A program made the translations under genes and the position numbers. A stretch of 48,535 bases of DNA, counting the filler, from Jimgerdemannia flammicorona (Eukaryota): NCBI GenBank assembly GCA_003990765.1. It is 2 parts of 2 records of this genome, joined end to end, with 100 filler letters (N's around TTAATTAATTAA, not from the genome) between each part and the next. Parts side by side here need not be neighbours in the genome. Positions count along the whole stretch, not along the records: positions 1 to 24,221 come from RBNJ01001006.1; 1 more part is not named here. The stretch is one strand, 5' to 3'. The notes under the pieces were generated by a model. It was not told where the DNA came from. It did not search any database and saw only the letters and a program-made list of their open reading frames with translations. Each line of letters opens with the position of its first letter. Position 1 is the first letter of the stretch. This document shows, piece by piece, positions 774 to 25,921 of this stretch.

Positions 774-905
774 GCTGGTATTATTTAGTGTCACATCAAA
801 ATGCTGGTGCTGGAACAAATTTGCGTCACCTCAGAATACCAGTGCTGGCATTATCTGGTGTTACATGAGAATACTAGTGCTGGCATTATTCAGTGTAACA
901 AAGAA
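774..905. repeat. 35-bp tandem repeat x4 in the LTR (enhancer-like)
   Basis: Units start at 774, 809, 844 and 879; consensus ~GCTGGCATTATYYRGTGTHACATSAGAATRCTRGT. Confidence 0.85.
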
Positions 906-906
906 C

Positions 907-1752: not shown

Positions 1753-3324
1753 TTCATTTGTGGTAAGTCTTTGAGCTATTTTGGGATTGGTGGTTCTTGT
1801 TGGTTGCTGCTACTGCGGTTCCTTGATCCTTCTTTTATATTCTTCAGGATGCTTATGCTGTGGTCACAATGACTCACAGTTGGTCATCATTGCTCATCTC
1901 ATATGCTATATGATCTTCTTGTGCTTCGATCTGGTGGCTTGCAAGGAAAGGCTGTCTCTTGTGCTGATGTCATCATTCTGGGGTCATCATTACAATATAA
2001 ATACATATATATATGTAAAAACATATATACAAATATACAAATATATATGTCAATAGATCAGTCTTCAACAGTTCATAGAACTGATGATGCTTCAAGTTAA
2101 ATATCCTTAATAGTTTCATACTTTCCATATAATCCTCACTCTGAAATCTGGTAATATTATGCTAAGACCAAAGATGATGTTATTTGTAATTATTATAGAT
2201 AAAAAATTAAAAAAAAAAAAGATACATTTATGATACAACTGATGCTTTTTTGTTTAATACACACATGATATTGTTTCTACCAACCCCTATATACTATATG
2301 CCCTAAAGTTCAAAATACTTAGTGGGTCAACTTCAAACATATATCAATATATATATAAAAGACAAACACTCTGACAAAATCAAAATGAAATAAAATTGAT
2401 ATCCAAGCTATAGTGGGTATATTTATCTAATTACCTCACTAATTCTATATCAACAACTCTATTTAATCAAAAATATTTAGCCATATTCTTCAGCAGAATT
2501 TCGAAATCAACTTATTTGCTAGATTGTATCTACAGACCAACCATTTACAACCATCAAGAGCAACTAGTTATATAGTATCTTTGACTCTCAAGAATGATTT
2601 ATATCTACCAAATACTAATACTGCTGGTAAAGATATTCTGGAGGCCTATAGGAAGGAGTATGATAATCTTCACCAGATACTTCAGATAAAATAAATAAAT
2701 AAGGGTAATACCATAACTGTTGCAAGCATAATTATATATACATATATATAAAGAGCTCCCCAATTTAATCTCACATTCTATAAACAGAATTCAGCAGACA
2801 GAATGTCATTTATGATCAATACATAGATATCTCCCAATCAATTTCATTTCTGAATATTACTGATCATTGAATTGACCTTGATTGACAACTTAAATCTCTT
2901 ACCATTGACTTCATCAAACTTGCTGATTCTCATTCAGGAGAAAACACCACAGATACTTTTATTAGTTATATCTAGAAGCTTGGAATTACAACTAAGATAA
3001 AAAAGGGGGGGGCTTGCAATCTGGTCAGTATTTTAAGAGAAGACTTAAAACAAAATAGATTTTAATAGTTATTTATTTTGCATAAATTTGCCAACAGAAA
3101 ATTTCAAGTACAGATTTTTGCCATTATAATAGACAATTCTACAAATAACTCAATATTTTTCTAAAATTTAGTAACTAATCTTAAATAAAAAAATGTGGCC
3201 TTCAGTATAGAAAACTATTATATATATTATCAGGCCCACATACTGAACCTCACTGTTCAGGATTATTTTATGCATATAGACAAAACATCTAGAAGTGAGG
3301 TAATCCCAAGTATTATTTTCAAAC

Positions 3325-4401
3325 GGGCCAGAGGGCGAGCGAGCTCAGGGGGCAGGAATGGGTGCCACTTATGCAGAGGTTGTGGGAAGTTCAGTACTCC
3401 CCACATGGTGGCTCCGGGGATTTGCTTGCAATGGTGGCCATGGAAGGGAGTAGGAAGATGCAGTTTACAGGCTTTTGGTGGGGGGTGGTAGATAGTGCTA
3501 AGAAGATTGGACTTCGGTGGTGAGGTGATGAAGTTGAGGAGGTTTGGGGACCGCAAATGTGGTGGTGGGACAGGCTTCTATTGGGTGGGGTCCTGGTGGA
3601 GGACTTTCAGCTTGGCGAAGGCCTGGAGTGTTTGCGTGATCTAGGTGGGGACCTGTGGCCAGAAGCCTGGCAGAGGGTTGGAATTGGGGAGGAGTAGGAT
3701 TGGAATGGACTCTGGCTTTGGAGCAAACAGGTGCACCAGTGGCTGCCCCCCAAGTTCTGAGTGGTGTGGTGGTGGGTCCTATGGCAGAATGTGATACTGA
3801 ACTATTGGTCTGGACATTTGGTGGATGGTGGGGTATTCGAGTGTGAGGATTGTTTCAATGTTGGTCAGGAGGGAGGAGTGATACAAATTGCCTGAACATT
3901 GGCTTGGTGAATGCGAGGTTTTGGGGGAGTTTTGGAGCGGTATTATGGATAGGGTAGGGCTGGGTGCAAGGAAGGGGGAGGAGGGGGGGAGATGGGGAGA
4001 GCTCCGTCAGCGACTGGTAGAAGGAGTGGGGGACGAATAGCTGACTCTTAGTTGGGCTTTGGCTATGTGGGTTGGACTGGCTGGGCATTGGGTTTATGTA
4101 TTTGAGGTAGGGTGCTGGGTTGGGGTTGGTGATAAGATGGCCCGATGGGAATAGTTGATGTTGGACACTTTGAATAGCTGGTGGCAGGGTTGGGGGTGGG
4201 GTGGGGGGTACCGCAGGGGCCTGGTGCAGTGTATTGCCCAGAAGAGTGGTGGGAGGGTTCAGGTAGTGGGTAATTGGGTGGTGCTCGGGCAGGGAGAGGA
4301 TGAGGGGAGGGGTTTGGGCCCCCAGGGCATTGGTTGAGGATAAGGGTGATATTGTATTGTTTACATTATAGACTTCGGTAATAAAGGGCAGTCCAAGAGA
4401 C

Positions 4402-4439
<38 letters not shown>
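3325..4439 (+). mobile_element. 5'-truncated L1/Tx1-like LINE (family A), end of ORF2 plus poly(A)
   Basis: Homologous to the 3' end of the LINE at 18361-24221; AATAAA and GTCCAAGAGACTAT followed by poly(A); 15-bp TSD GTATT(A/G)TTTTCAAAC at 3310-3324 and 4440-4454. Confidence 0.9.
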
Positions 4440-4442
<3 letters not shown>

Positions 4443-5203
4443 TTGTTTTCAAACTGTACAAACTGATTGTATTGGTCTGATCATCTCTATAATGATAGAA
4501 CAAATTCACTGCACAGTACAGAGCAATTAGTTTAGTTCTGAAAGAGCTGATATTGGATATCTATTTGCATTGAAACTCAAAATTTACAATGATCCAGCAT
4601 ATGCTGGAGTTTGTTGTAGTATGTACTCTTTTTTTGATTGGCTGAAGCAAATTGATTCAGAAGACTGAGAATTGTTAATTAATTAATTTCAAACTAGGGG
4701 GGGTTTTTTTTTTAAAAAAAAAAAAGGCTGATAGATTCTACAGTTACTGCTGATAAGGAAATATGGGGTAAGACTATAGATGAAAGTGAGTGGGATGTAC
4801 TAAGGAATGTTATCAGAGTTTTGGAAGTAAGTGATGATTGCTTTGACTCCACATTTATTTTGTCTACCTCTATACAGTAATGTAATAATACACTATTCTT
4901 AACTACTAGTGTTTTGATGATTGTATGAAGGATATTTTCAAACAAACCACCTCAATAATAAGCTCTGCAATACTGGTATATAATCTTTTGATTGACTGAC
5001 TAGAGGACAAGCTCGAGAAAAAGCTAGAGAGTAGTAGTGATTTCCAGTTTAGCCCAGATCAGAGAGATGCTATAGTAGTTGCTCTAAGCAAGCTCAGAAA
5101 ATACTACTCCAAAAAAGATGATCCAATATCAGGTATATTAGTGTAGCAGTTGTCTCTTTCCAAAAAAAAAAAGAGAAACTCTTTCAAAACTCACCCTCTT
5201 CTC

Positions 5204-8200
5204 TTTTTTTTTATTTTTTTTATTTTTTTTATTTTTTATAGTCACTCAGACTTCCCTTTATTACCTCAATCTATAAATAATAATACAATTTCACCCCCAC
5301 CCCTCACCCAATACCCCTTGTATCCCCTTCTCTACTCTCTATGTATCTCTCCCCATTAGAGGACAACCTAGCCACCTGTCACCTGAACCCTCCCACCACT
5401 TTTCCAGCAAATACACTTCACTAAACTCTGTTGGTCCCCCCCACTGGGTCCCCATCCTCACCATCAGCTATTCAAAATGTCAAGTAATAACCATTCTCAT
5501 CATACTACCTTAGCCCCAATCTCAATCTGCTGGCTCTTCTTAAATACATGCAACCAATGCCTAGCCAACCCAATCCAAATTACTGGAACCCAGCCCAAGG
5601 TCAACCATTCATCCCTAACCCCACTCACTAGCCTTCAGTGGAGGTCCCCCCATCTCCCCCCTTCCCCCCCCACCAGTGCCTGTAGTCCTAACTGATTCAC
5701 AATATAGAGCCAAAACTCCCCCAGGACTTCACACTTACCAAGCCAATGTTCAAGCATTTGTACCACTCCCCCCTCCTGGCCAACATCTATATATTCCTCA
5801 CACTCAAATATGCCATCCACCACCAAGTGCCCAGACTGATAGTTCAGTATCACATTCTGCCTCAGAAACCTCCACCATACCACCCAGAACTTGGGGGAAA
5901 GCCACTGCATCACCTGCTTACTCCAAGACCAAAGACTATTCCAGTCCCACTCCTTGCCAATCCCCCCCTCTGCCATGCTAAGGGCCATAGGTCCCCCCCT
6001 AGGCCCTGCATACAATCCATTCCATCGCCAAGCTGGAAATCCTCCACCAATGTACCTCCCAGCAATAGCCTGTCTCATTTCCACATCTATGGACCCCAGT
6101 CCTCCTTCCCCTCATCACCCTGCCACTGAAGTTCAATTCTTCTTACATCATCTACCACTCTCTACCAAAAGCCTTTATACTGCATCCTCTTGCTCCCATC
6201 CAGGACCACCATTGCAAGCAGGTCACCAGTAACTCCATGAGGGGAATACCAAACTTCCCACACTCTCTGCATGAGTGGTACCCACTCCTGGCCCCTCAAC
6301 TCACTCACTCTCTTCAGCCACCATGCTCTCAGACAGTAAAGGTATTTGGTAAAGTCCACCAAGCCTAGTCTGCCTCTGTCAATAGGTAGAGTAAGAACCT
6401 CCCATCCAATCTGACTTCACTTCCCAGCCCAGATCCATGATCTTGCCATCTTCAGAAGTTATCTGACCACTCATGCTGGAAAGTCCAGATGATACCTTAC
6501 ATACTACAGCTTTGTCAGCCAGTATACATTCAGCACCATCACCCTTTCTGCCAAGGATATATGCTGACCACCCCACTTCAAGAGCACATTTCCCTATACT
6601 AGAAGCTGATGTTCCCACTATACATGAGGTAGGAGAGATCTATATACTGAAAAGTAGATTCCCAAATACTGAACTGGTTCTCCTACTGATACTACTGTCT
6701 CAATCACATTGTCTCCTACTATTCTGCTGCCTAGTATCAGAGTCTCACATTTGTGCCAGTTGAGTTTGGTACCTAAGCCCCTCTCATACTATTCTACAGA
6801 CCTCCTTAACTCCTCCACATCCTCAAATAAACCCAGTCCAACCACCATATCATCTACAAAAGCCTCCACTTTCCAGTTAATTTCCAAAATGTCCAAACCC
6901 CCAATCTGACACCTGATCCTATCCAATAGGGCTCTAAGGAAAGGGTATATAAGATAGGTGACAAAGGATCTCCTTGTGGCACCCCACAACTTAGAGGAAA
7001 AGTCACACCTCTGTACCCATTCATCATCAATGCTGCTTGACTGTCCTCCAATAGACTGATCAATGACCTCCTGATCCCCAGGGGAACTCCTACTTGTTTC
7101 AGTACCCCTTTCAGCCAGACCCTCCTCACCCTGTCATATGTCTTCTCCTGATCCAGAAATACTAACCAGCCATCAACCCCAGCTGCCTGAGCTCCTTCAA
7201 TCACCCCATAGACCCAGACAGTTTCATCCCAGATCAACTATCCACCAACAAATCCCCTCTGTTCCACTCCCAGTACCTGCTGAGCAATTCCCTACAGTCT
7301 AGCCACTAAGATCTTTGTCACCAGCTTGTAGTCTATGTCAAGGAGCATGATCAGTTGCCAGTTCTTCCAATCTTCTCTTTACCTCTTATTCTTATATAGC
7401 AAAGAGACCAGCCCTAGAAGCTGGCCCCCAATCCACAATCCAGATCAAAGGACCTCATCACTCATCACTATCATCTCCTCCAATATCACTTCTACCCTAG
7501 CCATCTTCTTCCAAAAATCTCAGAGAAGCCCATCCTCTCCTGGAGCAGTCGTTTTGCTCATCAAAGCCAAGATCTTGCATACTTCCTCCCCCATCACTGG
7601 ATCTCCCAGTGTCCCCAGGCCCAGAGCTGGGTCTGGATGCCAATCCTCCAACTGCTGTTCAATGTTCAGGGCATCCTCCCCCCCTTCCTCCTCACTCCAT
7701 AAATTTCCCCAGTAAGTTCTCAGCATTTCCAGAATCTTAGGAGTCTCAGCCACCATCACTCCATCCTCATCCAAAATCCCTTCCCACTACTGTCACATTC
7801 TCCAAGCCTAAAGCAACCATGAAAGGACTCTGGTGGGCCTCTCTCCCTCCTCCAACCCCTGCCACTGCAACCTTGCCACTATTCCCTTCAACTGAACCTC
7901 TTCCTCCATTCATAGCACTTTCTTTAACTTATCAACTTCCTTTCATATCTTCTGAATCCTCAAATCTGCTGCCCCCCAATTCTCCAGTAACCCTGCCTAT
8001 CTCCACAGAAGTACCACCAATCTCTGTGAAGCCCATTGCACTTACTGCTGCCTCTGAGCACTCCTTCCTTTCCCCGCCTCCCTCCAGTACCTCTGAGCAC
8101 TTGATATCAGCCTCCACCAGTGATTCCTAATCACTAATCCCTGCTCTTGCCATCTACTAATCTTCACAATAACTTCCACCTCCCAGTCTATCTATAAGGA

Positions 8201-10997
8201 ACCATCCTCCAGCAAAGAAGAATTCAGCTACCAATGTCCTGGCCTATCCCCACTTCTCCCAAATCTCTCACCCCCAATTAGACCCCAGTGATCTGACCAT
8301 GGACACCAAACCACCTCTAGCCCATCTCAGACATCTACTCCTCAGTACTCTGCCATCAACATCCAGTCAATCTTAGAGCCCAGCCCTGCCACCCAGTGGG
8401 TATAAATTCAGTGATCCACTCAGAACTGTCACTCTGAGTCTACCAATGAGCTCAACATCTCAATCTCTATTCAATCATCAAACCCACCACTTTTGCCTCA
8501 TATACCTCTCCCACTATCAGTTTTGTCTATCCCTTTATCTTATATCATGTTGAACCCCCCCCCAGGCAATCAATCCCAGCTTCACCCATGACACCAGCCT
8601 CCCTCAGGCCCCTGATCCAATCCACTCATTCCCCCCTCTCAGCTGGGCAATAACATGACCCAACAGTCAAAGGGTTCCATCCCAGTCTCCTCAATATACT
8701 CTACACCAACCTACTCCCCCAATGTCCAATGTCCCCAATGTCTCCCATCCTCTTTCAAACCAGAATACCCACCTGCCCAGTCCACACAGCTGCCCCACCC
8801 CATTCTCAAGTCCAGTCCAGTAAGTCCATGTCTACCTCATACTGTATATTCTGTAGTAAGAAGAGATCTACATCCAGTCCCCTCAGCTAGCTAAAGACAT
8901 TCCTTCATTATACTGCTCCCCTCAACCCATTCACGTTCAAAGAAAAGATTCTAGTTGTACTGTTTATATTGAAAAAATGTTTGATAATTGAGAGCTCTGT
9001 CTAGAATTCCATGCTAATTCCATCCCCAGCCAGATCCAAATACCACTCTGCCTCCAAATCAGCCTCTGCTACCACCTGAGCATCCAGTGCTTCCAAGAAT
9101 TCCTGACACTCCATCCCATCTACAGCCTCTATTTCTGCCTGATAATCTGTATACACCACTCTCCACTTCTCCAACCCCTTCCTTGAGCCCTACAAGTATG
9201 CTGCCTGGTCATTCACTATCTCTCGAAGGGTCTCCACTCTCTGATCATCAACTTGATATTCCTCTGACTCCAATAGTACTACCAGGATTTCATTTCTAAT
9301 TTTCCTTGACACTTCCTCTTCATGAAGAAATTCCTCCCAGTACTGATACTTAGCACTCAGAAGTCCTCTCCCCCAAGCTCCTCAGCTGCTACCCTCTAGA
9401 GTCTTCTACAGTCACTTCTCTTCATCTACTGCCTCAGCAACATCCTGGGCAACTCTCTCGACTCCCACCACAGGGTCCACTAGTGCACTCCTCCTTCCTG
9501 ACTCATCCCACTCCTCCTCCAGTATGTTCAGCAATTCCTCCTCCCCCTCTGCCCCACTCAGGACACTATGCTGAGATCGAGCCTCCTTCACCATTTCAGC
9601 ATTCTCCACTACACTGCCTAGACCCTCCTCATTCAATCCATCAGGGGCCACCACTGGAGCCACCCTGTGCTCCCCAGTCCAGGCACTCTCCCTCAGTCCA
9701 GTACCACCTTCCCCAGCCCTGCCATCTGCCACACTCTCTCCTATCTTTGTCAGTAACTCCTTCTGGATTTGCCTCCACTGCATCTTCTCCCAGGTCCCCT
9801 TGTCCATCCTGATTCTTTTCCATCAACAATCTCCACCACTTTTATGGCCTCATACTCCTTCCAAGCCAGTCTCCTCTTCTCAACTACTCCTGCCAGGTCC
9901 TCCAGAGCCTCCAGCAAGTCCTTCTCTTCCTCAAGTGTCCCTTTCACCCTCGAGACCTTACACTCCACTGGTCCCAACTTAAGGGTCACTGGCTAGTCCC
10001 TTGTCTTCTCCATGTTCTCCTTTCCAGCCAGCCTCACCTGGATGTCAATGTTACTAGTCCAGAGTGCAGTACTCTCCCAGACTCTGAACTCAATGTCCAT
10101 AATCTCCCCATACTCCTTGACTGCCTCTACAATCAACTTCCTGGCCCTCTCTCTTGACACCATCAGAAAATCCAATACTGTCAACTGTACCACTTAAGGG
10201 TACCAGTACATTCACCTGGCCATAGAAACCACTACTCTGCCCACCATCACCCCCTTCTCAATGGCCTCCAACAATGATGCCTCTTTCTTGAACCCAACCT
10301 TGACCCCTTCTTTCCCCTTCAAGAACTTTACCAAAGCCACCCCCTTCACCTCCTGCACCACCAGCCTCAAGATCATCCTAGTAGTTACTGTCAAACCCCA
10401 GAAACACAATGTGACAGTGAATTCCAATCTTGATTTCTTAAGTAACAGTGCTGACACCATGCCTGTCATACCATATGTCAGGTTCCTGGGCCTCATGCCC
10501 ACCCTCTGTCCTGAACTACCAACTATTGTCACATCTGGATTTTTCTCCAGATCTACAGTCATAGCTCCATCAGCAGTCACATCTCCAACCCCTACTCCCC
10601 CCCCTCCCCTACTGCCCAACCCTCCATGGGGGCCCCTCTCTATCCCACAACAGTAGCCATCAATACCTTCCCTAGGCCCAGCCAACTATCCAGACCAGAT
10701 GTCATTCTTCCCATCTTGACCTTGTCTGTAAAGGTCGTTCTCTCTCCACCATATTGCCTCAATCCACCTCTTCTACCCACAAGCACTATAGCCCACCATA
10801 GAAGGCCCTGGTATTCCCAAACCATCACTTCTCCTCCCCCTACATGCTGTCAGTTGAAGGCACTACTGCTCCCCTAGCTGACATGCTCATCAGTATGGTC
10901 ATTGTTGTCTATGTTGCTAGTTACCTTTCACAAAAAATGTTGTAGAAAGTGTTGTCTGAGTCTTGTGTCACTCAAATATTACTGGTGAAAAGTGATG
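5204..10997 (-). mobile_element. Full-length decayed L1/Tx1-like LINE (family A), ~5.8 kb
   Basis: Poly(T) from 5204; 16-bp TSD AACTCACCCTCTTCTC at 5188-5203 and 10998-11013; ORF1 ~10912-9001; ORF2 from ~8967 with APE (FSLNVNGL), RT (LDQEKTYDRV, GVPQGDPLSP, FVDD) and C-terminal C..C..EHWL..C. Confidence 0.92.
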
Positions 10998-11971
10998 AAC
11001 TCACCCTCTTCTCTCAAAACTCACTCTCTTCTCTCAAACTCACTCTTTCTCTCAAAACAGCATTAGATCTATACTTAAAGCTACAATACCACAAAGATCA
11101 GAGCTGGGAGCAGCACAATGTTGAAGAAGCCAAGTAAGTCATAATCAAAACTTACTGAAAAAACTATATACTACTACAAGGTTCTAGCTAAAGTTCAGAC
11201 AAATATGCCAAATGATCTCTTCTGTCACATATTTACTTCAACAAAAAGAGGAAGAGAGAGCCATTAGTGGAAGAACTGCCATCAATAGATGAACTCACCA
11301 TTTACCTCACTAGTGACCATATGTTCAGCTGGAGGATATAGAGGTGCTCAACTGGTGGAAGGTGGGTTGTCTTCTTACAGATGGTTGGTAAAATTTGGTC
11401 AATTTTACCTACTATTCTAACCACCATTCTAACTACCATTCTGACCCCCAGGGTGTGCAGCTACAGATATGTCAAACAGACTTCCCCAGCCTGTGTGGTA
11501 TGGCTCAGGACTACCTGGTCATTTCTGCCACCAGCAATCTAGTCAAGTGGGTGTTCTCTAGCAGAATAGATCTCATTTTCCCTAAGAGGTGTGTACTGAA
11601 TGCTGAGGAAATCCAGGGCTGTGTGTGCCTAAAGTCTTGGTGGGGTACAGATTGCTAAAATTGAGTAAGTCTTATAACTTTAAGTAAATAAGTATCAGAA
11701 ATAAATTATTTTTTGTAAATTAATTAATAAAATAAAAAAAAAAGAGAAGTTCAGCTTGAGAGTATGCCAAGTATTTGTGGCCCTTGCCATTCCAAGTAGG
11801 GTGGAGGTCGGCAGAGTTGGTGGGGGATCAGCAGGATTGGTGGGGGGTTGGTGGGATTGGTGGGGGATCAGTGGGGTTAGGGGGGTCAGCAGAAGGAATA
11901 TGCAAAATTTGGGGCCCTCTGCTGGCAGCAAGAGGCAACCCTAAGCTACAAGTTAGTGTAGAAAGTCTGGG

Positions 11972-14210
11972 TCAGAGAAAGCATGCAGAATTTGTGACCC
12001 ACTGATCCACTATGAGAAGCAACTTCAAGTAGTCAGACTTTAGCATAGATTGGACTCTGGTATAGATTGGATTCTGGTACAGATTAGACTCTAGCACAGA
12101 TTCAGACCCCATAGACACTCTGGCCCTATACTGTGGTGCCATACTAGCAGCACTACATAGCAGAGCCAAGGGACCAGTAGAGCCCAGCAAAAAGCTAAAA
12201 GCTAAAAACTAGTACTAAAAATAAAAAGAGGTACCTGGCCACCTAACTCTCACAAAATGCTGTCTAGCCTATACAAAAGGCCACCTAACCTATACAAAAG
12301 ACCACCTAATCTATACAAAAGACCACTTATTTACAAAAATTCTCCATCTGCCAGTCCTAGGCCTTGATGAGCCTATTATCTATTGTGAGTACAATAACTG
12401 TAGTATATATCTGAGCTCTCAAAAGCAACAGTGATATAGAGGTCATGTGGTTGGAATAGGATGGCCATGTTGACCACAAATAGGATCCCAAAACTATAGG
12501 TGAGGTTATATCAGATACCACTACTATCCTCCCAAGTTGGGCCCTTTCTTTTCAGAATATAAAACATTATCAGAGTGATATTATTATCTATATGTAAGGG
12601 TAGAGAAATATTGTGCCCAATGTACCCTGATGTGATACAAGTATATGGGTGAGTGAATCCTTGGCCCAGGACCTCATATTACCAGACAGTGGCAGAGAAT
12701 GTCTGTCCTTCATCCAGCCCTGAGAGCCCTGGCTTGGAAATCTGCTGAAACAGATAGCATCTGGTTAAATTCTTCCTTCTTGTATGCAGAGACAGAAACC
12801 CTTGGACTGTACCAAAAAAAGTCAAGCCCCTCACCTCATATGACATGCTAAGTTGTGCTAAGAATATATACACAGCAGTATCAAGAGCACTACTAAGCTG
12901 GTCTGCTGTTTGGTCTAGCAATCAGCTCAAAGATTTCTAGATCATAGCTGCTGTTACCAAACAGACCATGTCTTACTCATATGTAGCTTATTCTTCAACA
13001 GTACTTCTAAAGTTCTGATAAGAGTACAGAATTCTGTATATCTCTGAAAATTTAACAAGAATAGGTTATTAAAAGAAAATCATAAAAGAATGAAAGATGA
13101 ATGCAGAAAAAACTCTAGGAAATCCACTCTTTATCAATGTTACAGTATACTCAATTCCCATACAAACTCCCCCTCCCTGCTTTTTATGCCTCTTCTTTTG
13201 CTACCTAGTATTTGATATAATTCTTATAAATCTTGTTAATATAGTGATAAAGGTCATCACTATAGAGATTCCTTACCACTACTATAACAACCTCTCTATA
13301 TTTATTAGTAATAATGTAGTTCTCTTCATCATTGAATACTCCAGCAGGCCAATGGGCTCCTTAATCAAGAACAATTGAATCTGATTTAAATATAGATCCC
13401 CAATCTTAATGGTAGTACTGGTATTGCTCATGCTGAATAACTTGCCCTTGAACTTCTCTATTTGATCAGATGCTAGATATGGTCAAACTTGGGTAACTTT
13501 GAAATCTCCTCTGTAGTAGAACTGAGCCTTAATCTGAGTAGTGAGCTAAGTTAAGTATACAGACAGATTATATACAAGTATCATATATATAGGAGTTTTT
13601 AGGGGAGAATAAATAAAAATAAAGTTAAATAAAATAAAAGAGTGAGTATTCAGAAAAAATAGTGTAAGAATGAGTTGCTTGCAAATGAGTTGCATATAGA
13701 TGAGTTATGCAAGATTACTCATAAAGGCTTGCTTCTGATCCTTTTGAGATCTCTACCTTGTAATATATTGACTCAACAGCTCAGCCATCTAAAGTATACC
13801 TCACAACATTCTTCAGCCTTTTTTCATCTTGACCAGATATTGTGAATAAAGTCAGCAGATCTCGCTATAGAGCTATAGTCTCTGAGAAAAAGAGAAACAG
13901 TATGAAATTAACTTAGTTGTACTGTGGGAATTTAAATGTAGTGGTAAAAAGGCAACCAACATCTACTATTAGCTGCTCTAAAAAGACTGCCATATATATA
14001 GCTGTAAAGTCTGTGAATTCTGAGATCTGAAGGATCACTGTGAGTTGTTGTCAGAATTCTCCCTCATCCTTATCACTATTGTCATTATCATTGTCATTGC
14101 TACTTTGACTCTTGATGAGCAGCTTGTATGCTGCCCATATGAGAAAGAATTTAAGATTGTCAGCAGAGAGTGTATTCCTATCTCAAATGTTCTCTCTTTT
14201 GATAATCATT
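11972..14210 (-). pseudogene. Decayed multi-exon gene, TET/JBP-like 2OG-Fe(II) dioxygenase fold (tentative)
   Basis: Reading through stops at 12380-12680 gives TSGYIGHNISLPLHIDNN-ITLIMFY...SSGI*YNLTYSFGILF..AILFQPHDLYITV....DIYYSYC: HxD plus positions where H and R are one C>T/G>A step away. Intron-like AT-rich gaps with GT/AG ends. Boundaries are approximate. Confidence 0.5.
12035..12330. repeat. Two short tandem arrays: 18-bp (AGATTGGACTCTGGTAT-like) at ~12035-12115 and ~21-bp (CCACCTAACCTATACAAAAG) at ~12238-12330
   Basis: Directly visible periodic sequence. Confidence 0.75.
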
Positions 14211-15118
14211 AGATAAAAAAAATAAGTAGACCAACTTATAATTAAGGACTGCTTTTTATTTGTTTATAATATAGCAGGAGAAACAAAAAAGAGTATCAGA
14301 GCATCAGAGAGAACAAAGAAAGGGAGAACAAAGAGAGGATGATGTCACTAAAGATAAAGAAAGAGTGATATCACCAAAGAATTTAAGTGATCTAGATCAA
14401 TCCAGATCAATCTGAATAAGATCATAGGACCAATCTGAGTTGATTCAAATCCATCATATGATGAATCTGAATTAAATCTCATCCAGATAAATTGCATCTG
14501 TTCAGAGCACTACTCCTCAGCCATCAGCACCCCTTTTGATTGATAGTCATATTAAGTATAATTTGAGAAGATTCTTGACAAATATATATATTATAATCAC
14601 ACTAAGTATCTTGTCAAATGAGTAGGCTATTCTGAGTATAATAGTACTTAGAAACTTATTGAAAATCTCAAAAATACTTAATAAGCTCTTCATGAATACA
14701 AATATTAAGAATAATATTCTCTTTCAAGTAGAGGAGAATGTAATAATTCTCTATATTTCATTTTCTTTCTATAGAATTATTATCTTTTCTTTATTATGTT
14801 ACTCAATAAAACATTTCAGAATAGCTTAGAATAATATAGAATTACTTATTTATTTACCAAGAACCTGTTTTCTAAATAGTTCTACTAAGATTCCATTAAT
14901 TACTAATTAATACTTAGTTATTCTCTATAATATTCTATCAAGTTTCATTAGCAGGACTCATTACTTAGTATCTAGCTTAGTAATGTTCTATCTATTTCTT
15001 TTTCTTTCTATTTCTCTTATATAAATATTCTCTTTGAATATTTCAATAAAACTCAGTCTAGTTAGTTATTATATATTTACTTGAATCTTCTGAAGATAAT
15101 CAAACTTCTCAAATTCTA

Positions 15119-15138
15119 TTTTTTTTTTTTTTTTTTTT

Positions 15139-15188
<50 letters not shown>

Positions 15189-17290
15189 TTTTTTTATTTT
15201 TTTATTTTTTTATTTTTATTTTTATAGTTATATAGACTTCTACTTTATTACCAAACCATCTATGGTGTACTACTAACACAAATGTGCTCCTTACTCAATC
15301 TCACTCAGAAAATCTCTCTCTCTCTTACTATTGCCCCAAAACTCTGCTAACCTCTCTGCTACCCAAATCCTCCCCCACTCTTTCTACAGGTTGTCTCTAC
15401 TAAATACTATCAATATCCCCCCCCAGTACCCCTACCCCTCTACCATCCATTCAACATATCTATCATCAGTCACTCCTATCTAATCACCTTCACTCCCAAA
15501 GTCAACTGTTGACCCTCTTTAAATAGAGAAAGCCAATGTCTTGCCAGTCTGATCCAGATCACTAGCATCTATTCTAATGTCAGCCACAATCTTCTAACCC
15601 CCCCACCAGCCTCCTCCAGAGGTCACCCCACCTCTCTCCAGCCACTAACCCTATTGAGTGTACCCTTAGCTATACTTCAATCTCTCTTCAAAAGTCTCCC
15701 ATTATCTTATACTCTCTCAGCCAATATTTGGGAGTCTGTACTACCTGTCCCTCCTACCTGATATTAAGACACTCCTTGCACTCCTGGGTACTCCCTTCTA
15801 CCAAATGGCCCATCTGGCAGTTCAATATAACATTATGTCATAAAACTCACCCCCATACTATCCAGAATTTAGGTAGAATCTATCTTGCTATCTACTTGCC
15901 CTACTGCCAAATACTATTTCAGTCCCACTCTCCACCAATCTCCACCCCCTACCATGCCTCAGGCCATAGATCTTTCCCATATTTCCAAAGGTACTCTATG
16001 CCATCCTCTAAGCAGAAATCATTCACTAGTGCCCCATCTAACAAAAGGCAGTCCCACCTCTACATCTGAGGTCCCCATTCCTCCTCTCCCTCATCACTCT
16101 ATTGGAGACCAATATGATGTACCCCATCAGTCACTCTCTACTAGAATTCCCTATACCATATCCTCTGACTTCTCTTCAATGATATTAGAGAAAGAAGATT
16201 CCCAGTTATACCCTGGGGAGAGAATCAGACTTCCCACACCCTCTGTATGAGAGAAACCCACTCTCTGTCCCTCAACTTGCTTGCTCATTTAAGCCACCAT
16301 ATCCTCAAGCAGTAAAGATGCTTGGAAAAATCCACCAGACCCAGGCCACCTCAGTCCACTGGCCAGATCAATATCTCTCACTCAATCTGACTCTGCCATC
16401 CTACCTATATCCAGGTCCTGGCCATCTTCAGCAGTCATTTGACTACTCACACCAAAAAGTCCAAGTAGTATTCTAGATATCACAGCTTAGGCACCCAGTA
16501 GATATTTATCACTGTTATCCTTCCTGCCAGAGAAATATAGTGACCACTCCATCCCAAGAGAGTGCTTTCCTACTCAGCTGACCTCTGCTCCCACCACTCA
16601 TGTGGTAGCAAGAAGTCATATTCTAAAAAGTAAATCCCCAGGTAGTGAACAGCCTCTCCCACTGGGACAATTGTTCCAATCAAATCCCCACCTACTTTCT
16701 CTCCTCCTAGCACCAAAGTTTCACACTTATACCAGTTGAGCTTAGCACCTGAGTACCCCTCATATCACTCTACTGCATCTTTCAGTACTACAATATCTGC
16801 AACTGACCTCAGCCTGACTACTATATCATCAGCAAAGGCCCCCACCTTCTAATTAACCCCTAGAATATCCAACCCTCCCACCTTCCACTATATCTTATCC
16901 AAAAGCAGTTCCAGAGACAGTGTATATAGAATCAGTTACAGTGGATCCCCTTACAGCACTCCTCTGCCCAGAGGAAAAGAAACCTCTCTATACTCAATTA
17001 CCATAATTGCTGCCTGACTCCCTTCCAGCAGACTGATCAAGGCCCTCCAGACCCCCAGGGGGACTCCAATACACATTAGCACTCTCTTCAACCACACTCA
17101 TCAGACCCTATCATAGGTCTTCTCCTGGTCCAAAAAAACTAGTTATCTATCTACTCCAGCAGTATAAGTACTCTCAATGACACCATGTATTCAGGCTGTC
17201 TTATCTCTGATCAGATGTCCTTCTATGAACCCTTGCTGCTTGGTCTCCCTACAGCCTAGCCACCAGTATCTTTGTGACTAGTTTGTGATC

Positions 17291-17294
<4 letters not shown>
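15119..17294 (-). mobile_element. LINE family A-related copy (RT to 3' end), interrupted at 17295 by another LINE
   Basis: ~105-nt poly(T) tract at 15119-15223; decayed RT motifs (DQEKTYDR, GDP, FADD) on the minus strand. Confidence 0.88.
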
Positions 17295-17327
<33 letters not shown>

Positions 17328-18360
17328 GTCACTTGGACTCTACTATTTATTACCAATCTATTAATAATTTTACAATACCACCTCCCACTACCCAATTGCC
17401 ATTGGAGAGTCTCTCTCTATATCATCACAAATAAAGACTTCCTTCTCACCCACTACTCCCACTCTTCTCTCACTTTACCTACAGATCTTCTCTACCAAGT
17501 GATGCCTTCAACCACCCTGCAACCCCCACCCTAACCACCAGCCTGTCAAGGTGTCTTCCATAAGTCTATGCTACCACAGCAACTGTTCCCCAAGCCTAGT
17601 CTCCTCCCATCCTCAAAAACAAATAGCCGGTGACTGGCTAAACCCACCCACATTGCCAAGACTCAGTCTAAGATAATCCACTCCTTCCCTACCCCCCCCA
17701 CCAGTCAATCCCTCAAATCCTCCCACTGACCCTGCATGCCATCTCCCCTACACACTACCCCCAGATGATCCCCAACAGCTCACCAGAAGTCACTAAGTAC
17801 CTCATACTCTCCTAGCCAATGTTCAGGCATCTGCACATATCCCCCTTCCTGCCCTATATTATGGCAATCCTCACACTCAAAGCAGCCCCCCTTGATAAGG
17901 TGACCTGAGCAGAAATTGAGTATGATATTCCTCCTCAGCATATGCCACCAGACCACCTAGTACTTTGGCAGCATCCACCTCTGTACCTTGGCACTCCAGG
18001 CCCATATACCATGCCAGTTCCAATCTTCTCCAATACCCACTTCCTGCTAACCACTAGGCTACAGATCCTGGCCCAGTCTCCTTTGGCAATCCACCCTATT
18101 ACCAATGTCAAACTCCATTAAGGGCACACCTCCTAGCAGCACTTGATCCCATCTCTACATTGCCAGATCCCAAGCCACCTCTTCCTCATTACCCTACCAA
18201 TGAATCTCAATATGGTGTGCCCCCTCAGTGACTCCCCACTAGAAGTCTTTATACTGCAGTTGTGCAGTGTTCCAAAGTCCAACCAGCAATAGGAGATCCC
18301 CTGTTGAGCCCCTTGGAGAGGACCTCATTTCCCAGACCTTCTGCAATAGGGGAACTCAAC
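17295..18360 (-). mobile_element. LINE family A 3' fragment inserted in the preceding LINE
   Basis: Poly(T) at 17295-17324 followed by ATAGTCACTTGGACT; inverted homolog of ~23180-24221. Confidence 0.88.
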
Positions 18361-18442
18361 CATCTTTCTCTGGTAACATTCAGGTTACACAACCGTTTGG
18401 CAACACTTCTGATGCAGTTTCTGGAGACAAGCTACTAGTTTC

Positions 18443-20473
18443 ATGGTAACCAACGACCATCCTAAGGTACGTACTGGGCAGTGAGGCCCTGGAGCATTCG
18501 AATGGCAGCAAGTGGGGAGAGGCCCTGGCTTGGGGAGAAGTATGAGGGGCCTGCTGGTGGGAGGATGTGGTGGAGGAGGGGGTGGAGCTGGAGGTCAAGG
18601 GTCTGGCAGAGTGAGCTTTGTGGAGAAGGTGAAGGGAGATCAGCAGGGGGCCAGACTGGAGAGCTGGCTGAGGGGGGGGAGGGTGCCAGTGAGGGCTTCA
18701 AGACAGCAACCTCATGGGGGTGCCTCTCTGGAGGGCCATAGGGGTGGAGCTGGGGGGGTAGCGGCTGAGGCAGGGACTGCTGATGGAGGTGTGATGGGCA
18801 ATCTGGAAAAAAATCTAGATGGGACTGCTGATGGTGAGCCGAGCAGTGGGAAGGGCATGAGGCCCAGGGACCTGGCGGATGGTGTAATGGGACTGGCAGT
18901 GGCACCATTACTCAAGAAGTTGATCTCATAATTTGCAGTCACGATGTGTTTCTGGGACTTGGCGGTGATGGTGAAAATGGTGCTGGGACTCATCGCTAAG
19001 CAGGTGGCAGGAGCTGTATCTGTGAAGTTTTTGAAGAGACTGGAGGGAGTGGAAGTGGGTTTTGAGGAGGTGGCGCCACTGGAGGAGGCGCTGAAGGTTG
19101 GATTAGTGGTCGGGAAGGTGTGTGTTCTGATGGTACGTTGCCTGAGGTGGGATCCCAGGGTGGTCCAACTGCTGGTGAAAGGAGTGCTGATGGTGATAGC
19201 AATGGAGACGAGAAAGCAAGTTGAGGACTTCATGGCAGAGTATGGAGAGGTGGTGGATATCGGATTCAGGATCTGGGAAGGGACCTCACTCAGGACTGGC
19301 GATGTGGATGTGAGGATTCGGCTGGCTGGGAAGGAAGCTACTGAGAAGGCGAGAGACTGGCCTTCAGCAATGGTCTGGGGAGCAATCTTGTGCAAGGTGA
19401 CAAGGGTGAAGGGTAGTGAGGAGAAGGAGGAGGATCTATTGGAAGTGCTAGAAGAGCTGGGTGGTACAGTAGAGCGGTGAGTAAAGGCTTGGGAGGCCTT
19501 TGTGGAGGCGATGCATTTGGAGGTAGTGGATGGAAAGCGGATTCGAGTGACCAAGGAGCAGTGGGAAAGGGCTCAGGGGCATAAGAGACAGAAGGAGCTG
19601 CTGGCCAGGCTGGGTAATGGGCCACTGGGGGATGCGAGCAAGGAGAAGAGTGCAGGGGGAGCTGAAGCGAGTGTCTGGGCTGGTGAGGGGGAGGGGAAGG
19701 CTGAGAAGGAGGCAGGGGAGGATAAGGTGAAGCATAGTAAGGACCTGTTTGCTGATGGTATGCTGGAGGTTTGGGAGGAGGAATGGGAGGGCTCCCCTAC
19801 CCCCACCCCTCTTGTCAGGCATGGCCCGGCTTCCCAAAACAGGGTGGTCAAAGATGTGCCAATGCAAGGGGCCCAGAGAGTGCAATTCAGAGTTCTGGAG
19901 GTGGCATATGGGGGACAGGTGGTGGTGGCTGGTGAGGAGGAACTGGTGGATGTCCCGGAGGTATGGGATGAGTCTGCAAGTGCTGGAGCTGACACCACAA
20001 TGTTGGATGGAGAGAGGCCGGCAACTCCAGGGGGGAAAGAGGTGGGGAACTTGCTTTGGATGTGCCGGATGATGAATAACATGGCAGTGGAAGAGTTGGG
20101 GGAGGTGGACTTGTGAGTGATGAGTGATGATCATTGGGCAGAGATACTGCAGGGGGATGGAGTAGTGAAGGCATTGAAGGTGGAAATTCTTGGGGTGTAC
20201 CTGGAGGAGGAAGGATATGAGGTGGATAAGGAGAGGGAGGCAGAGTTAGCAGTTATTGCTGGAGAGAGGGCTGAATACTGCTGGAATAAGCATCATAGAC
20301 TGCAGCTCTGGCAGGAGGCATGTATCGAATACCAAGAGGAGTTTGAAGAGAAGGCAGATGGAGAGATGAATGAACTGCTGGTTGGATTGGAGGCTCAGAG
20401 GGCAGAAGAGGAGGAGGTGGCTGCAGAACATAATCTGGACATGGCACAGGAGGAGATGAGCATGGAGCAGTAG
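18443..20473 (+). pseudogene. LINE ORF1 (RRM-like core, acidic coiled-coil C-terminus), with premature stops
   Basis: ORF-track pieces 18512, 18944, 19502 and 20117 share one frame with the ATG at 18443; core YGEVVDIGFRIWEGTSLRTGDVDVRIRL..WPSAM is conserved in the other copies. Confidence 0.85.
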
Positions 20474-20503
20474 AGATTGATTGACAACATAACATCTTCC
20501 ATT

Positions 20504-23500
20504 ATGAACAGTACAACCAATATTTTTTCTTTGAACATGAATGGGTTATGGGGCACGACTCGATATAGGAACATTTTTACTTAGATGAAGGGATTGGAGG
20601 CCGATCTCTTCCTCTTGCAGGATGTCCAGTGTGAAGATGATTCTGATAGGATGGAATGGACAAAGGAATGGGGAGGTATGGTGATTTGGAAGGGCAAGGT
20701 TGGGATTTTGGTTCAGAAAGGCAGAGGGGAGATTCAGGAGGTGAGGAGCTGGAGGGAGAGGCTGGTCTGGAGTGAGTGGATTCAGGCAGGCTGGGAGCCA
20801 GTTACAGTTGGCTCCTGCTACTGCCCTGCAGTATGGGGTGAGAGAGTAGATTGGATGAAAGGCTTATGGGAGAGTGGGTTACTTGCAGAGGCTGGAGTGG
20901 ATATGCTTGGGGGTGATTTCAATATGGTTCGGGATATACTGTTGGATAGAACAGATGGAGGACGAGGTGCTGAGAGCAGGAGTGGAGGACTGGTGGCATG
21001 GGAGGAAGTAGAAAGGCTAAGTGTGCTAGTCGATGCTGGTAGGGAGTACTGGGGGAATAGGAGGGTTTATACACATTGGGCAGGAGGTCTGGGGACAAGA
21101 ATCAACTGGATTTTGATGGCCAGCTGCTGGGGCCTAGATGTTTGGAAATCACTGGAGGTAGAATGGTGTCCATGGTCGGACCACTGGGGGCTTTTGGGAG
21201 AAGGGTGCTTTGGGGGAAGTGGGGATGGGCCTGGAAATTGGCACCTCAATTCCTCTTTGTTAGATGACAAGACCCAGTGAGATGAGTGGGCTAAAGACAT
21301 TCAGCTGAGAGTGGAGAACTGGTGGCAGGAAGGGACCTCGGTTGGGACTCGGTGGATGCGGATGAAGGAGATGGCTAAGATTTACTGGAGTGAGGCTGGC
21401 AAGGAGGCAGGGAAGCAGCAAAGGCGTAAAGTGCAGTGTGCCTCTACTAGATTGACAAGGCTTCTGGAGGAGTGGGCAAGGCTGAAGATGGTAGAGGAAG
21501 AAGAAGATTGGAGGTCAACAAGAGTGAAAATGGAGGTTGGGGAACTACAACAGGTGCTGCGGGAAGAGGAAGAGGCGAGGGTACAGAGCTTGGTGGCACG
21601 GCTTTGCTGGCAGGATCTGGAGGAAGGAGAGAGGCCTTCCAAGTTTCTTACAAGAACCCTTAGGGTGAGGCAGGTACAGCAAAGGTGGGAAGGGGTGTTG
21701 GACTCAGAGGGTAGGCTGGTGCATGGTGTACAGGACATTCTTGGATTGCTGAAGGAGAGATGGAGTGGATTGTGGAGTGAGAAGGAGGGTGGGGCAGAAG
21801 CTGCTGCCATGGAACATACATTGGAGGATTGGCACCTACTACAAATTGAGGGGCTAGGTGACCTGGTGATGCCTGTACAGGAGGATGAGATCCACCAGGT
21901 TCTTGCCACGACAATGCCAGGTACAGCTCCAGAGGAGAATGGTCTGCCCTGGGACTTTTGGAAGCGAATGGTTGGCATCCCAGGGGTGATGGGAGAGATG
22001 ACAGAATTGTGCAACCTGATTCTACAGACAGGGAGGTGGGTGGGGAAGCAGGACCTTAGGCTGGTGATGCTGCTGTATAAAAACAAAGGAAGGCAGGAGG
22101 ATTGGAAGAACTGGCAGCTGATAATGTTGCTAGATATGGACAGAAAGTTGGTGACTAAGGTGGTGGTGGCGAGACTACAGAAGGTGGTCCAGCAAGTTGT
22201 GGGGATTGAGCAGAGGGGATTTGTGGGTGATTGGCTCATCAGGGATGGTACTGCCTGGGTACATGGAGTTATCGAAGGGGCAAGGGCCTGTGGACTGGAT
22301 GGGCATCTAGTCTTCTTGGACCAGGAGAAGGCATACGACTGGGTGTGAAGAGTCTGGCTGGTGAAAGTTTTGGATAGGATGGGGGTTCCATGCCGATTCT
22401 GGTCAGCAATGGTCAGCCTACTGGAAGGGAGTAGGGCTGCACTCACGTGTAATAGACATAGAGGGATAGCATTCCCCTTGGGTAGGGGGGTGCCCCAGGG
22501 GGACCCACTGTCCCCATTTTGTATGCTCTTTCCCTGGAACCCCTTATGGACAGAATTTGGAGGAGGATAGCCAGGCTCTCTGTCTTTGGCATAGGATGGA
22601 AAGTTGGGGCCTTTGCAGATGACATGGTGGTGGGTTTGGGATTGATTGCTGATGTTGAAGAGCTCAAGAAGACTGTGGAGTGGTATGAGGAGAACTCTGG
22701 AGCTAAGCTGAATTGGCATAAGTGTGAAACAATGGTACTGGGTAATGGTCTGGTGGGAGGGGAAGTTATAGGAACAATCATCCCCACCAGTGAAGCAGTG
22801 CAGTACTTGGGCATCTATTTGTCAGTCTATGGGTCAGTTCTGCCCAGGCTTTGTTGGGAGCAGAGGATTGGAATCTGGGAGGAGGCCCTGCAGAGTTGGG
22901 GGGAAAGAGGATTTTCTCTGGCAGGGCAGGTCTCGATTTTGAATGTCTACTGGCTGCCAAAGTTGTGGTACCTGGCATATCATCTGGACTTCCCAGCCTG
23001 GGTGGTGAAGAGATTGTTGAAGTCAGTGAAAAGATTGGGCTGGCAGGTGGAGTCAGATTGGTTGAGAGACCTTGTCCCTACCAGTGGCAAGAGGTGGTCT
23101 TGGGCTGGTTGACTTTCCTAAATGGTTACACTGCTTGAGAGCATGGTGGCTAAGGAGGGCAGTGGAATTGGGAGGAGGTGGTTGGGTTCCTCTGCTACAG
23201 AAGATCTGGGAGAGGTGGTCATCACAAAGGGGTTCAACCGGCGATCTCCTCTCATTGGTTGGACTTCAGAACACTGCACAATTGCAATATAGAGGATTTT
23301 GGTGGGGGATTGCAGAAGGGGTGCACCGCATTGGTATTTGTTGGCAGGAGAATGAAGGAGAGGAGGACTGGGACCCGGCTATATGGAGATGGGATCATAT
23401 ACTGCTGGGTGGCACTTCTTTAATTGAGTTCGACATTGGGGATGGAATGGAATGCCAGAGGAGACTGGGCCAGGATCTGTGGCCTAGCAGTTGGCAAGGA

Positions 23501-24154
23501 GTTGGAATTGGCGAAGAGTGAGATTGATATGGTGTTTGGACCTGGAGTGCTGTAGTGAGAAAGTGGATGCTGCCAAAGTACTGGGTAGTCTGGTGGTGCA
23601 TGCTGTGGAGGAATGTTATGCTCAATTTTCACTCGGGGCACCTTGTCATAGGGGGTTGCTTCGACTGTGAGGAGTGCCATAATGTAGGGCAGGAGGGAGG
23701 GTATGTACAGATGCCTGAACATTGGCTCAGAGAGTGTGAGGTGTTGGGGGAATTTTGGCGGACAATTGGGGAACATTTGGGGGTACAGCGCAGGGGAGAT
23801 GACATATGAGGGAGGTGGGAGGACTTGAGGGATAGATTGGTAGGGGGGATTGGGAAGGAGTGGCTTACTTTGGGTTGGGCTTTGGCTATTTGGGTGGGGC
23901 TGGCCAGTCATTGGCTATTTGTTTTTGAGGATGTGAGGAGACAGGGCTTGGGAGACCGGTTGCTGTGGTGGCATAGGCTTATGGAAGACACCTTAACAGG
24001 CTGGTGGCTTGGATGAGGGCTGCAGGGTGGTCGGAGGTGCCGCTTAGTGGAGAAAATTTGTGGGCAGAGTGGGGGAAGAGTTGGAGTAGTTGGGGAAAGG
24101 GTGATTTTTATTCGTGAGGAGGTAGGGAGGGGCCCCCCTATGGGGATTGGGTAG
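20504..24154 (+). pseudogene. LINE ORF2: APE endonuclease, reverse transcriptase and C-terminal Cys/His motif; stops and ~2 frameshifts
   Basis: IFSLNMNGL, LLQD, GGDFN, WSDH (APE); LDQEKAYDWV, GVPQGDPLSP, AFADDM (RT); CEEC...EHWLREC. Confidence 0.95.
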
Positions 24155-24221
24155 TGGGTGGTGATGATGTATACTTATTCATAGACTGGTAATAAATAGC
24201 GGAGTCCAAGTGACTATAAAA

Positions 24222-24321
24222 NNNNNNNNNNNNNNNNNNNNNNNNNNNNNNNNNNNNNNNNNNNNTTAATTAATTAANNNNNNNNNNNNNNNNNNNNNNN
24301 NNNNNNNNNNNNNNNNNNNNN
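24222..24321. other. Assembly gap with artificial six-frame-stop linker (N44-TTAATTAATTAA-N44)
   Basis: Exactly 100 bp with TTAATTAATTAA centred at 24266-24277. Contiguity across it is not guaranteed. Confidence 0.95.
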
Positions 24322-24390: not shown

Positions 24391-25921
24391 GATAAGATAT
24401 GTAAACTGTTCATCATCATCAAAGAAATGTTTAAAAGCTCAGCTGGGACTACCACCACTTTCTCAGCCCTTCCTCTAATGATCTCTCACTGATCCTTACA
24501 AATCACCCTCTAGATTCAATCACCATTTGTACTGCTGCTGAAAAGGTCTACTCTTTCTGCTGCCACCTTTCTGATGTCTGCCATCCTACTCTCATCAACA
24601 TCATATTCTTCATCATCCAGAAGAGCTGCAACCATTGCCATCACCAGCTTAGGCCCCTGCATTGCAATATTGAAAAATTCTTCCCATACCTCCTGAGATC
24701 TATGAAATACATCCACTTCCTTGATGTCTTCCTCAGTAAGTTTCTCAAGTACTGCCTGATACCAGCTCTCTGCTGTCATCACCAGGGGCCCAGAAGTTGA
24801 TGGTCTGGGGGTCCTGCTCAGCTCCTGCAGTTGCTCCCTATCTGCTAATACATCTGAAGCCACATCCACCAGCTCACCAGTCTCAGGGCAATCCCAATGA
24901 ATATTTGCCACCCCAGCCATATGGGTGTTCTCAACCTGCATCTCTAGTACCACTCCAATATCAGCCTCAAAGCCTCCATCTCCCACCTCCTCCTTATCTG
25001 CCCACTTTCCTCTCACTGGTACATATGCTGAGCTCTCCATACCATCTAGCTGGGAGAAAGACACCTCTGCCACTTCCACACCCTCCATCTGATTTTTAGC
25101 CACCTCTACTCTCACCTTCTCTTCCACTATTGCCCCTTGAAGAGCCACCTGCAGACACTCCCAATTTTCTTTCCTCCATCTCTTCTACTTACTATCTGCC
25201 TGAATCCAGATCCAATCCTTGGCAAACTCTTCCCACTTCCTCTTTCACAACTTCTTTGCAGCCTCTCTCTTCTCTGGAGCAATTACCAACTCTTCCTCCT
25301 CTTGTTCCACCTCCTTCCTCCTCTATATCTTGCACTCTTGCCCTCCAATCCGAATCCCCTCAGGCCAATCATGTCCCAGACCAGTTGCCTCTTTGCCTTC
25401 CAGTTGCAGCATCACCTTGCAGTTACCATTCCTCAATTTGGTGCCCTCCCAGAATATGAACCCAAAATCCACCATCTCACCATCACCACCCAATGCCTCC
25501 ATCACTATCTCCTTGGTCTCCTGTCTGCCCAGAGTTGGCAAACCCTCTACTACCAGGCAAACAGCTCATGGGTCCCATCTCAAACACCTTGCCATCCCAT
25601 TCCAGATACCCTTGATCATCATCTCTTTCTCCAGTACCTTCACCATTGCCTCCTCCTCCACAAATCCAATCTCCACAGCCTCTGCTGAAGGGATGAACTT
25701 CAAGGATTCTGCCTCAGCCACTTCCTCCCCCACCAGCCCCAGAACCTCCCTAGCTGACATTGCCAATCCCAAGAAATTTACTGAGACTGCCCACATTGAT
25801 ACTGATTTGTAAAAAAAGGACCTCACCACCAACTTGCCTATCCTGGCTGCCAGAGTCACCTTCTCCTTAGTCCCAGAGACACCAGCAGTCACCTCACCAG
25901 TTGCAGCTGCACCACCAGCAG

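Follow-up and report, generated by a model that had tools for sequence, protein, structure and literature searches.

A decayed gene of a putative PE-like dioxygenase family beside a hAT transposase domain in Jimgerdemannia flammicorona

Transposon-borne TET/JBP-like dioxygenases of fungi are thought to fight methylation-based silencing, and they are the closest described systems for a dead gene at positions 13357-12330 (minus strand) of a 48,535-nucleotide stretch of Jimgerdemannia flammicorona DNA (assembly GCA_003990765.1), called the window throughout. The PE type of these enzymes belongs to fungal DNA transposons of Pezizomycetes and Agaricales (Kojima 2025, PMC12730594); its hallmark is HxE in place of HxD (section 3.4 of that paper), and, according to that survey, it can be recognised as TET-like only through HHpred at weak E-values together with structure. 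The same survey documents TET-like genes inside hAT and many other fungal DNA transposons (PMC12730594). Among these, the PU type of the hAT7 transposons of Puccinia, which make a 7-bp target duplication (PMC12730594), resembles the present locus in placing a TET-like 2-oxoglutarate (2OG) dioxygenase gene, with HxD, beside a hAT transposase.

We read 13357-12330 (-) as a pseudogene from a sparsely sampled, fungal-type family of 2OG dioxygenases of about 370 residues, most like the PE type, that decayed by C>T/G>A changes beside the C-terminus of a hAT transposase; taken as a whole, this reading is probably correct. By eye, the published PE-type sequences that were compared appear to have a block order in common with this family (NYI..D..T.EIV..V.RN; SAG; an R a few residues before Hx(E/D)), as well as the further blocks GG.F....YG(I/V), N..V.(W/F)....HGT and a C-terminal GLS..T..RL, and the window itself appears to retain the N-terminal block in PE-like form (NYI…E(V/I)V…V.RN). 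In the same published material, the PE type is like this family in size, in giving no match to the standard TET/JBP profiles and in residing in transposon-rich fungal DNA.

Other named groups are less similar in their local patterns. As far as the published AG- and PU-type sequences at hand allow a judgement by eye, neither has the PE-like block order common to this family; the AG type reads HRD...H...R.C.S.Y, a clearly different local pattern, and the N-terminal blocks (GG.MWA.GWRK...) and R.GFS.Q tail of the PU type are not seen here. PF20515 and the AG-type/CcTET proteins of Agaricomycetes, all from Basidiomycota, lie closest to this family among the named clusters when features are compared in the ESM Atlas (0.91-0.96), with no hidden Markov model (HMM) match between PF20515 and this family at E<=10. 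The Tet_JBP family (PF12851: TET1-3, JBP1/2 and phage TETs) has, in a jelly-roll domain, an HxD...H triad comparable to the one here and differs in that its profile does not match, that the canonical Arg past the distal His is not conserved here and that no Cys-rich/CXXC region is present here.

Homology to intact proteins identifies the locus as a gene. An earlier sequence-only reading had started from the open reading frame (ORF) at 12679-12921 (-); this ORF is present, the strings quoted from it and from its continuing frame read exactly, and that minus-strand frame (12921-12380) carries two in-frame stops, TAA and TGA. Read through from 12380 to 12921 (-) as 180 residues with X at the stops, it gave four phmmer matches at E<=0.001 among 1,835,955,588 representative proteins: P0003 (136 aa, 68% identity, E 3.5e-44), P0004 (134 aa, 43% identity, E 1e-16), P0005 (128 aa, 29% identity, E 2.3e-6) and P0006 (374 aa, matched over residues 239-339, 26% identity, E 4.1e-5). 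Homologue searches with P0006 and with the family alignment added only P0007 (259 aa), which is 46% identical to P0006. Full-length relatives, each split by two introns, are encoded on two metagenome contigs, L001 and L002. A family HMM built from P0006, P0007, the spliced L001 product, P0003 and P0004, from which P0005 and L002 were excluded because they nearly duplicate L001, matched this locus alone in the six frames of the window. No relatives of the gene family were found in contigs of prokaryote genomes, and tblastn with P0006 against phages returned chance matches only (E>=7).

The remnant can be followed in segments that are collinear with the relatives. Its core, at 12403-12732 (-), encodes a C-terminal beta-rich domain with the HxD, a GG..Y..YG block and a mutated distal His (family HMM independent E-value, i-E, 9.4e-37; tblastn 68% identity over 107 codons to P0003). 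An N-terminal conserved block at 13199-13357 (-), in another frame than the core, matches family HMM positions 89-142 (i-E 0.0025) and corresponds to P0006 residues 92-124 (13357-13199, tblastn E 0.009). Two strings had been proposed as an upstream exon: NYIITNKYREVVIVVVRNL lies within this block and shares its support, and PYLASDQIEKFKGKLF (13482-13435) has no statistical support. The C-terminal tail, at 12330-12404 (-), continues in a shifted frame that matches P0003 residues 111-135 (64% identity, tblastn E 1e-6) and ends in a TAA aligning with the end of P0003; on the tail region 12422-12327 the family HMM gives an i-E of 0.93. Between core and tail the relatives are collinear and the window switches frame, at 12405-12412 (-), in the TA run GATATATAC. 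The 2OG-binding Arg that had been reconstructed from SDIYYSYC falls away with this finding, since the indel in the TA run puts that string out of frame (the true continuation, from ~12404, is TTVIVLTIDNRLIKA*DWQMENFCK) and, in the true frame, the residues of the relatives at this place include no Arg.

It is conceivable in principle that an HxD...H-like string arose by chance in AT-rich junk where there was never a gene, and the absent Pfam match and the many stops are the sole points for such a view; the phmmer and HMM E-values for the core, together with the collinear N-terminal and tail matches, refute it and leave it a vanishingly small chance. The interval 13357-12330 (-) is a decayed copy of a conserved gene that has intact relatives.

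The relatives also show what the copy has lost. An alignment of five intact relatives contains 19 invariant columns, including both metal-binding histidines (H283 and H335) and G336, and has the pattern P.H.D..(T)...R.G...GG.(F/W)Y(N/D)..YG......N....F.....HG(T/S). The HxD is kept in the window at 12586-12594 (-) as CAT ATA GAT (H-I-D), the motif being HTD in P0003 and P0004 and HVD elsewhere; its Asp is found in four of the five aligned relatives and in L001, with Asn in P0005. The distal metal-binding His (H335, invariant in the five relatives) has become Tyr (TAT) at 12436-12438 (-). A TAA stop at 12679-12681 (-) stands where P0003 has Gln (CAA>TAA), and a TGA at 12511-12513 (-) and a TAG at 12357-12359 (-) stand where P0003 and P0004, the closest relatives, have Trp (TGG>TGA and TGG>TAG). 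Most of what the sequence-only reading had restored by reversing cytosine decay is present in the intact relatives: they have HTD for HID, DLHGT for DLYIT and Gln or Trp codons for the stops, and the codon at 12438-12436 is His in all aligned relatives, which confirms that restoration. With three stops, at least one frameshift and Tyr replacing the distal iron-binding His, the window copy is, on its coding sequence, non-functional.

A similar step can be seen among the relatives themselves. P0005 reads HVN, and a near-identical genomic copy in L001 (1570-1956) reads HVD, which amounts to a G>A step; some of the database relatives may themselves be decayed copies.

The lesions in the window run strongly in one direction. 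The alignment to P0003 covers 132 codons, of which 89 are identical and 43 different; the differences comprise 31 single C>T/G>A steps, four single reverse steps and eight others, and all three stops as well as the His>Tyr change belong to the 31. Nearly all of the inactivating lesions are of the type expected from methylation-linked or RIP-like (repeat-induced point mutation) deamination of repeats. The proposal that the gene was killed by cytosine mutation holds as to direction (31 of 43 vs 4 reverse); a purely CpG-type process does not. By context, the 31 inferred transitions comprise five with the TpG/CpA signature, 17 that result in TpA and nine others, and decay purely by CpG deamination was ruled out on these counts (5/31 and 17/31).

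The setting of the gene was correctly described as CpG-depleted. The 1171 bases of 12330-13500 contain not a single CpG and the 4104 bases of 11015-15118 contain two, figures far beyond chance, in a window of transposon-rich, fungal-type DNA whose observed/expected (o/e) CpG ratio is 0.10 overall and about 0.01 over 12-18 kb. The hAT pieces through 15118 have GC 0.28-0.44, CpG o/e 0-0.05 and TpA/ApT 0.9-1.3, and the long interspersed elements (LINEs) and the gypsy element have TpA/ApT 0.58-0.76. Such a composition fits long exposure of the tract to methylation-linked or RIP-like cytosine mutation, two processes between which these data do not decide.

The metagenome contigs show the same bias. 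L001 1-2716 and L002 156-2870 are 99.0% identical over 2717 bases, at GC 0.34 and CpG o/e 1.2; from L001 to L002, 15 of 23 substitutions are C>T or G>A, and L002 has in-frame stops. These differences suggest cytosine mutation directed at repeats in a host quite unlike this one.

As to the enzyme, the C-terminal domain is, to judge from its sequence, most likely a double-stranded beta-helix Fe(II)/2OG dioxygenase with an HxD...H triad. An ESM Atlas model of P0003 (predicted local distance difference test, pLDDT, 0.69) has 2OG-Fe(II) oxygenases, by name or family, in eight of ten structural neighbour rows (template-modelling, TM, scores 0.54-0.63), and one of these eight is a cluster from Basidiomycota in which 28% of members carry Tet_JBP. 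Compared by features, P0003 comes closest, among named clusters, to 'Tet-like 2OG-Fe(II) oxygenase' (score 0.91, with 178 features in common), where 72% of members have PF20515; P0006 scores highest, 0.96 with 209 features in common, against a cluster in which 15% of members have PF20515, and reaches 0.91 against a viral Tet_JBP cluster. The sequence-only reading had called the product a TET/JBP 5-methylcytosine oxidase. What stands of this is the HxD...H in a beta-rich domain, and no Pfam or PDB sequence match could be added; the TET link comes from the Atlas neighbours and from the by-eye, unscored likeness to the PE type, which together make a TET/JBP affinity of the gene family most likely.

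Several observations weigh against our reading, some concerning the enzyme and others, given further below, its carriage by a hAT element. Pfam searches, set to E<=10 with HMMER filters that discard most matches above ~0.1, named no family, Tet_JBP (PF12851) and 2OG-FeII_Oxy_6 (PF20515) included, for the window read-through, P0003-P0006 or the L001 exons, and in the six frames of 11000-15120 they named no dioxygenase family either. The weak detectability of the PE type itself, as described in the survey (PMC12730594), would explain these absent Pfam matches. Sequence searches of the PDB, with a profile of the relatives' alignment and with P0006, gave 0 matches at E<=10. AlphaFold2 models from 5- and 7-row alignments had mean pLDDT values of 34.1 and 41.7, too poor to be usable because the alignments are so shallow; both low-confidence models have nine strands followed by a helix. 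Foldseek with the second model (pLDDT 41.7) found nothing in the PDB at E<=0.001 (best 0.13), and the cupin and hydroxylase rows that it returned were dismissed as meaningless.

The remaining points on this side concern the Atlas rows, a missing residue and the comparison with the PE type. Every structure row of the ESM Atlas for P0003 carries the flag 'under the bar: name no family', and the rows agree as well with generic 2OG oxygenases (prolyl hydroxylase-like, 2OG-FeII_Oxy_3, _5) as with TET. The relatives' alignment has no conserved Arg or Lys 10-20 residues past the distal His, where the 2OG C5 carboxylate site would be sought; P0003, P0004 and the window do have an Arg about 21 residues past it, in D(D/E/N)RL (AGG at 12374-12372 in the window), and P0005 has no Arg aligned there. 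Published PE, PU and AG sequences from Table S1 of PMC12730594 were compared with the gene family by eye only and unscored. The family has HVD/HTD, in contrast to the HxE given for the PE type in the cited section; because HxE is the PE hallmark and the motif here is HxD, the gene family is most likely PE-like by sequence pattern, not PE.

Part of this evidence could also be accommodated by a decayed 2OG-Fe(II) dioxygenase of another functional class, a protein hydroxylase or small-molecule oxygenase that does not oxidise DNA bases. Prolyl-4-hydroxylase, hypoxia-inducible factor (HIF) prolyl hydroxylase and 2OG-FeII_Oxy_3/_5 are among the Atlas structural neighbours at the same TM as the Tet_JBP-bearing cluster, and neither Tet_JBP nor PF20515 gives a profile match. 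We nevertheless consider this alternative unlikely: the named feature-space neighbours of P0006 and P0003 are Tet-like (PF20515) and Tet_JBP clusters, the PE-like order of N-terminal blocks, seen by eye in the published sequences at hand, extends beyond a generic jelly-roll core, and the transposon setting speaks against another functional class.

The element beside the PE-like gene is identified by its dimerisation domain. The C-terminal dimerisation domain of a hAT transposase (Dimer_Tnp_hAT, PF05699) lies at 11392-11658 (+) (Pfam E 4.5e-6, 26.8 bits, cut-off 21.4), and its ORF and the dioxygenase-like gene stand tail-to-tail, with ~670 bp between their 3' ends. A KDZ (Kyakuja-Dileera-Zisupton) or Plavaka transposase had been anticipated in the neighbourhood; a six-frame Pfam search of 14500-15118 and the rest of 11000-15120 found no KDZ, Plavaka or other transposase except Dimer_Tnp_hAT, so that the hAT dimerisation domain is the only nearby signal.

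Two LINE insertions split the hAT sequence. One, at 5205-10997 (-), has its poly(A) as a T run from 5205, is flanked by a target-site duplication (TSD) of 17 out of 17 bases (5188-5204 = 10998-11014) and is homologous to the LINE at 18.5-24.2 kb; the other is 5'-truncated, lies at 3325-4439 (+) with its poly(A) at 4405-4439 and has a TSD matching at 14 of 15 bases (3310-3324 / 4440-4454). When both are excised in silico, 2886-3324, 4455-5204 and 11015-11658 join as one plus-strand tract, which, by eye, is a putative decayed hAT transposase. Its putative upstream part, 2886-3324 (+), reads ..SHSGEN.., ..IIDNSTNN.. and ..AHILNL.., blocks typical of hAT, here read by eye, that neither Pfam nor a homologue search confirmed. 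The putative middle part, 4455-5204 (+), lies between the two LINE insertions and was likewise assigned by eye, with its collinearity given by the LINE TSDs. Further upstream of the dioxygenase-like gene, the AT-rich tract is bounded by the poly(A) tail of another nested LINE, read at 15119-15230 (-); no TSD could be recognised around this LINE, the tail of which begins at 15119.

Carriage of the dioxygenase-like gene by the hAT element is plausible. The main alternative keeps the same enzyme family and denies that it is hAT cargo: the gene would once have belonged to the host, or to another, now unrecognisable element, and would merely abut the hAT 3' end among the remains of transposons. We hold this to be a real possibility, if not the favoured one. 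The spacer between the convergent genes (11817-12326) contains, in a repeat scan, three short tandem arrays, at 11817-11875 (20-base units), 12035-12107 (17-base units) and 12237-12326 (21-base units), which could be transposon subterminal repeats; arrays of this kind are typical of subterminal regions, and the hAT could have its terminus in this spacer. No pair of short terminal inverted repeats (TIRs) with the 7-8 bp TSD of hAT transposons was found around both genes: a transition-tolerant scan of 1500-2900 against 13500-15125 gave six pairs, none convincing, with at most 11 of 16 bases matching and an exact TSD in none of the six, and the right end of the hAT unit may lie beyond the nested LINEs. 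No transposase was found on the relative's contig L001 (3.7 kb), and the relatives on L001 and L002 have none within 3.7 kb; the clusters of relatives in the protein collection are single-member and single-contig. Also weighing against our reading are the Pfam search of 1-11700 (+) in three frames, which found no RNase-H-like DDE core and nothing beyond the dimerisation domain, the search with the putative hAT segment 2886-3299, which found 0 homologues, and the sections of the survey cited here, which report no PE-type genes on hAT elements (PMC12730594).

Against a mere abutment, the gene and the hAT pieces are in the same extreme state of decay, unlike the inserted LINEs, and they lie only ~670 bp apart. 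TET-like genes inside hAT and other fungal DNA transposons have precedent in the survey already cited, and L001 and L002, 99% identical and one of them with stops, look as expected for a repeated element. The gene and the hAT C-terminus lie tail-to-tail on one old, AT-enriched, CpG-free tract, later broken by two LINEs; the locus preserves a sequence of events in which the hAT and dioxygenase DNA was there first, heavy C>T decay was next and the LINE insertions were last.

Pfam names two kinds of element in the window, a Ty3/gypsy chromovirus and LINEs with Exo_endo_phos and RVT_1. The chromovirus, at 29932-35811 (+) (~29.9-36 kb), has dUTPase (E 2e-30) upstream of reverse transcriptase, RNase H, integrase, an SH3-like domain and a chromodomain; it is fairly well preserved and, at CpG o/e 0.15, less decayed than the hAT tract. 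LINE copies occupy 5205-10997 (-), 15231-18365 (-), 18500-24200 (+), where Pfam names Exo_endo_phos and RVT_1, 25000-29000 and 41000-48000, and have poly(A) runs at their ends. They are strongly strand-asymmetric, with a sense-strand GC skew of about +0.5 (±0.5 by orientation), G at ~37% and C at ~14%, and have no matching A/T skew. A 300-codon open frame at 907-1809 (-), with no Pfam match, lies where CpG is least depleted in the window (o/e 0.33) and may belong to the host. Two 44-base runs of N, at 24222-24265 and 24278-24321, lie 3' of the large LINE, where the header of the stretch places the join filler.

As a genomic fossil the locus is genuine but rather ordinary; it is a copy from a dioxygenase family of which few members have been sampled. 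By analogy with the described systems, intact members would oxidise 5-methylcytosine or another modified DNA base and so counter methylation-based silencing; the substrate, too, is suggested by analogy only. The window copy, P0003-P0007 and the products of L001 and L002 could, as a tentative proposal, form an undescribed HxD sister clade of the PE type, missed by Pfam Tet_JBP and 2OG-FeII_Oxy_6, present in at least two very different fungal-type backgrounds and captured here by a hAT. Those backgrounds may be the CpG-free, LINE- and gypsy-rich one of the window and an AT-rich one with normal CpG and introns.

The catalogue of known types (PU, AG and PE) is recent and incomplete, and this locus, taken with the small number of intact relatives, points towards an additional lineage. 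A lineage missed by standard profiles implies that surveys based on Pfam Tet_JBP undercount such genes. As the window copy is dead, the practical value lies in the intact relatives. If the proposal is true, a DNA transposon would here have captured a demethylase-like gene in one more independent event, and the locus would be a clear case of such a gene destroyed by the cytosine mutation process that it supposedly counters.

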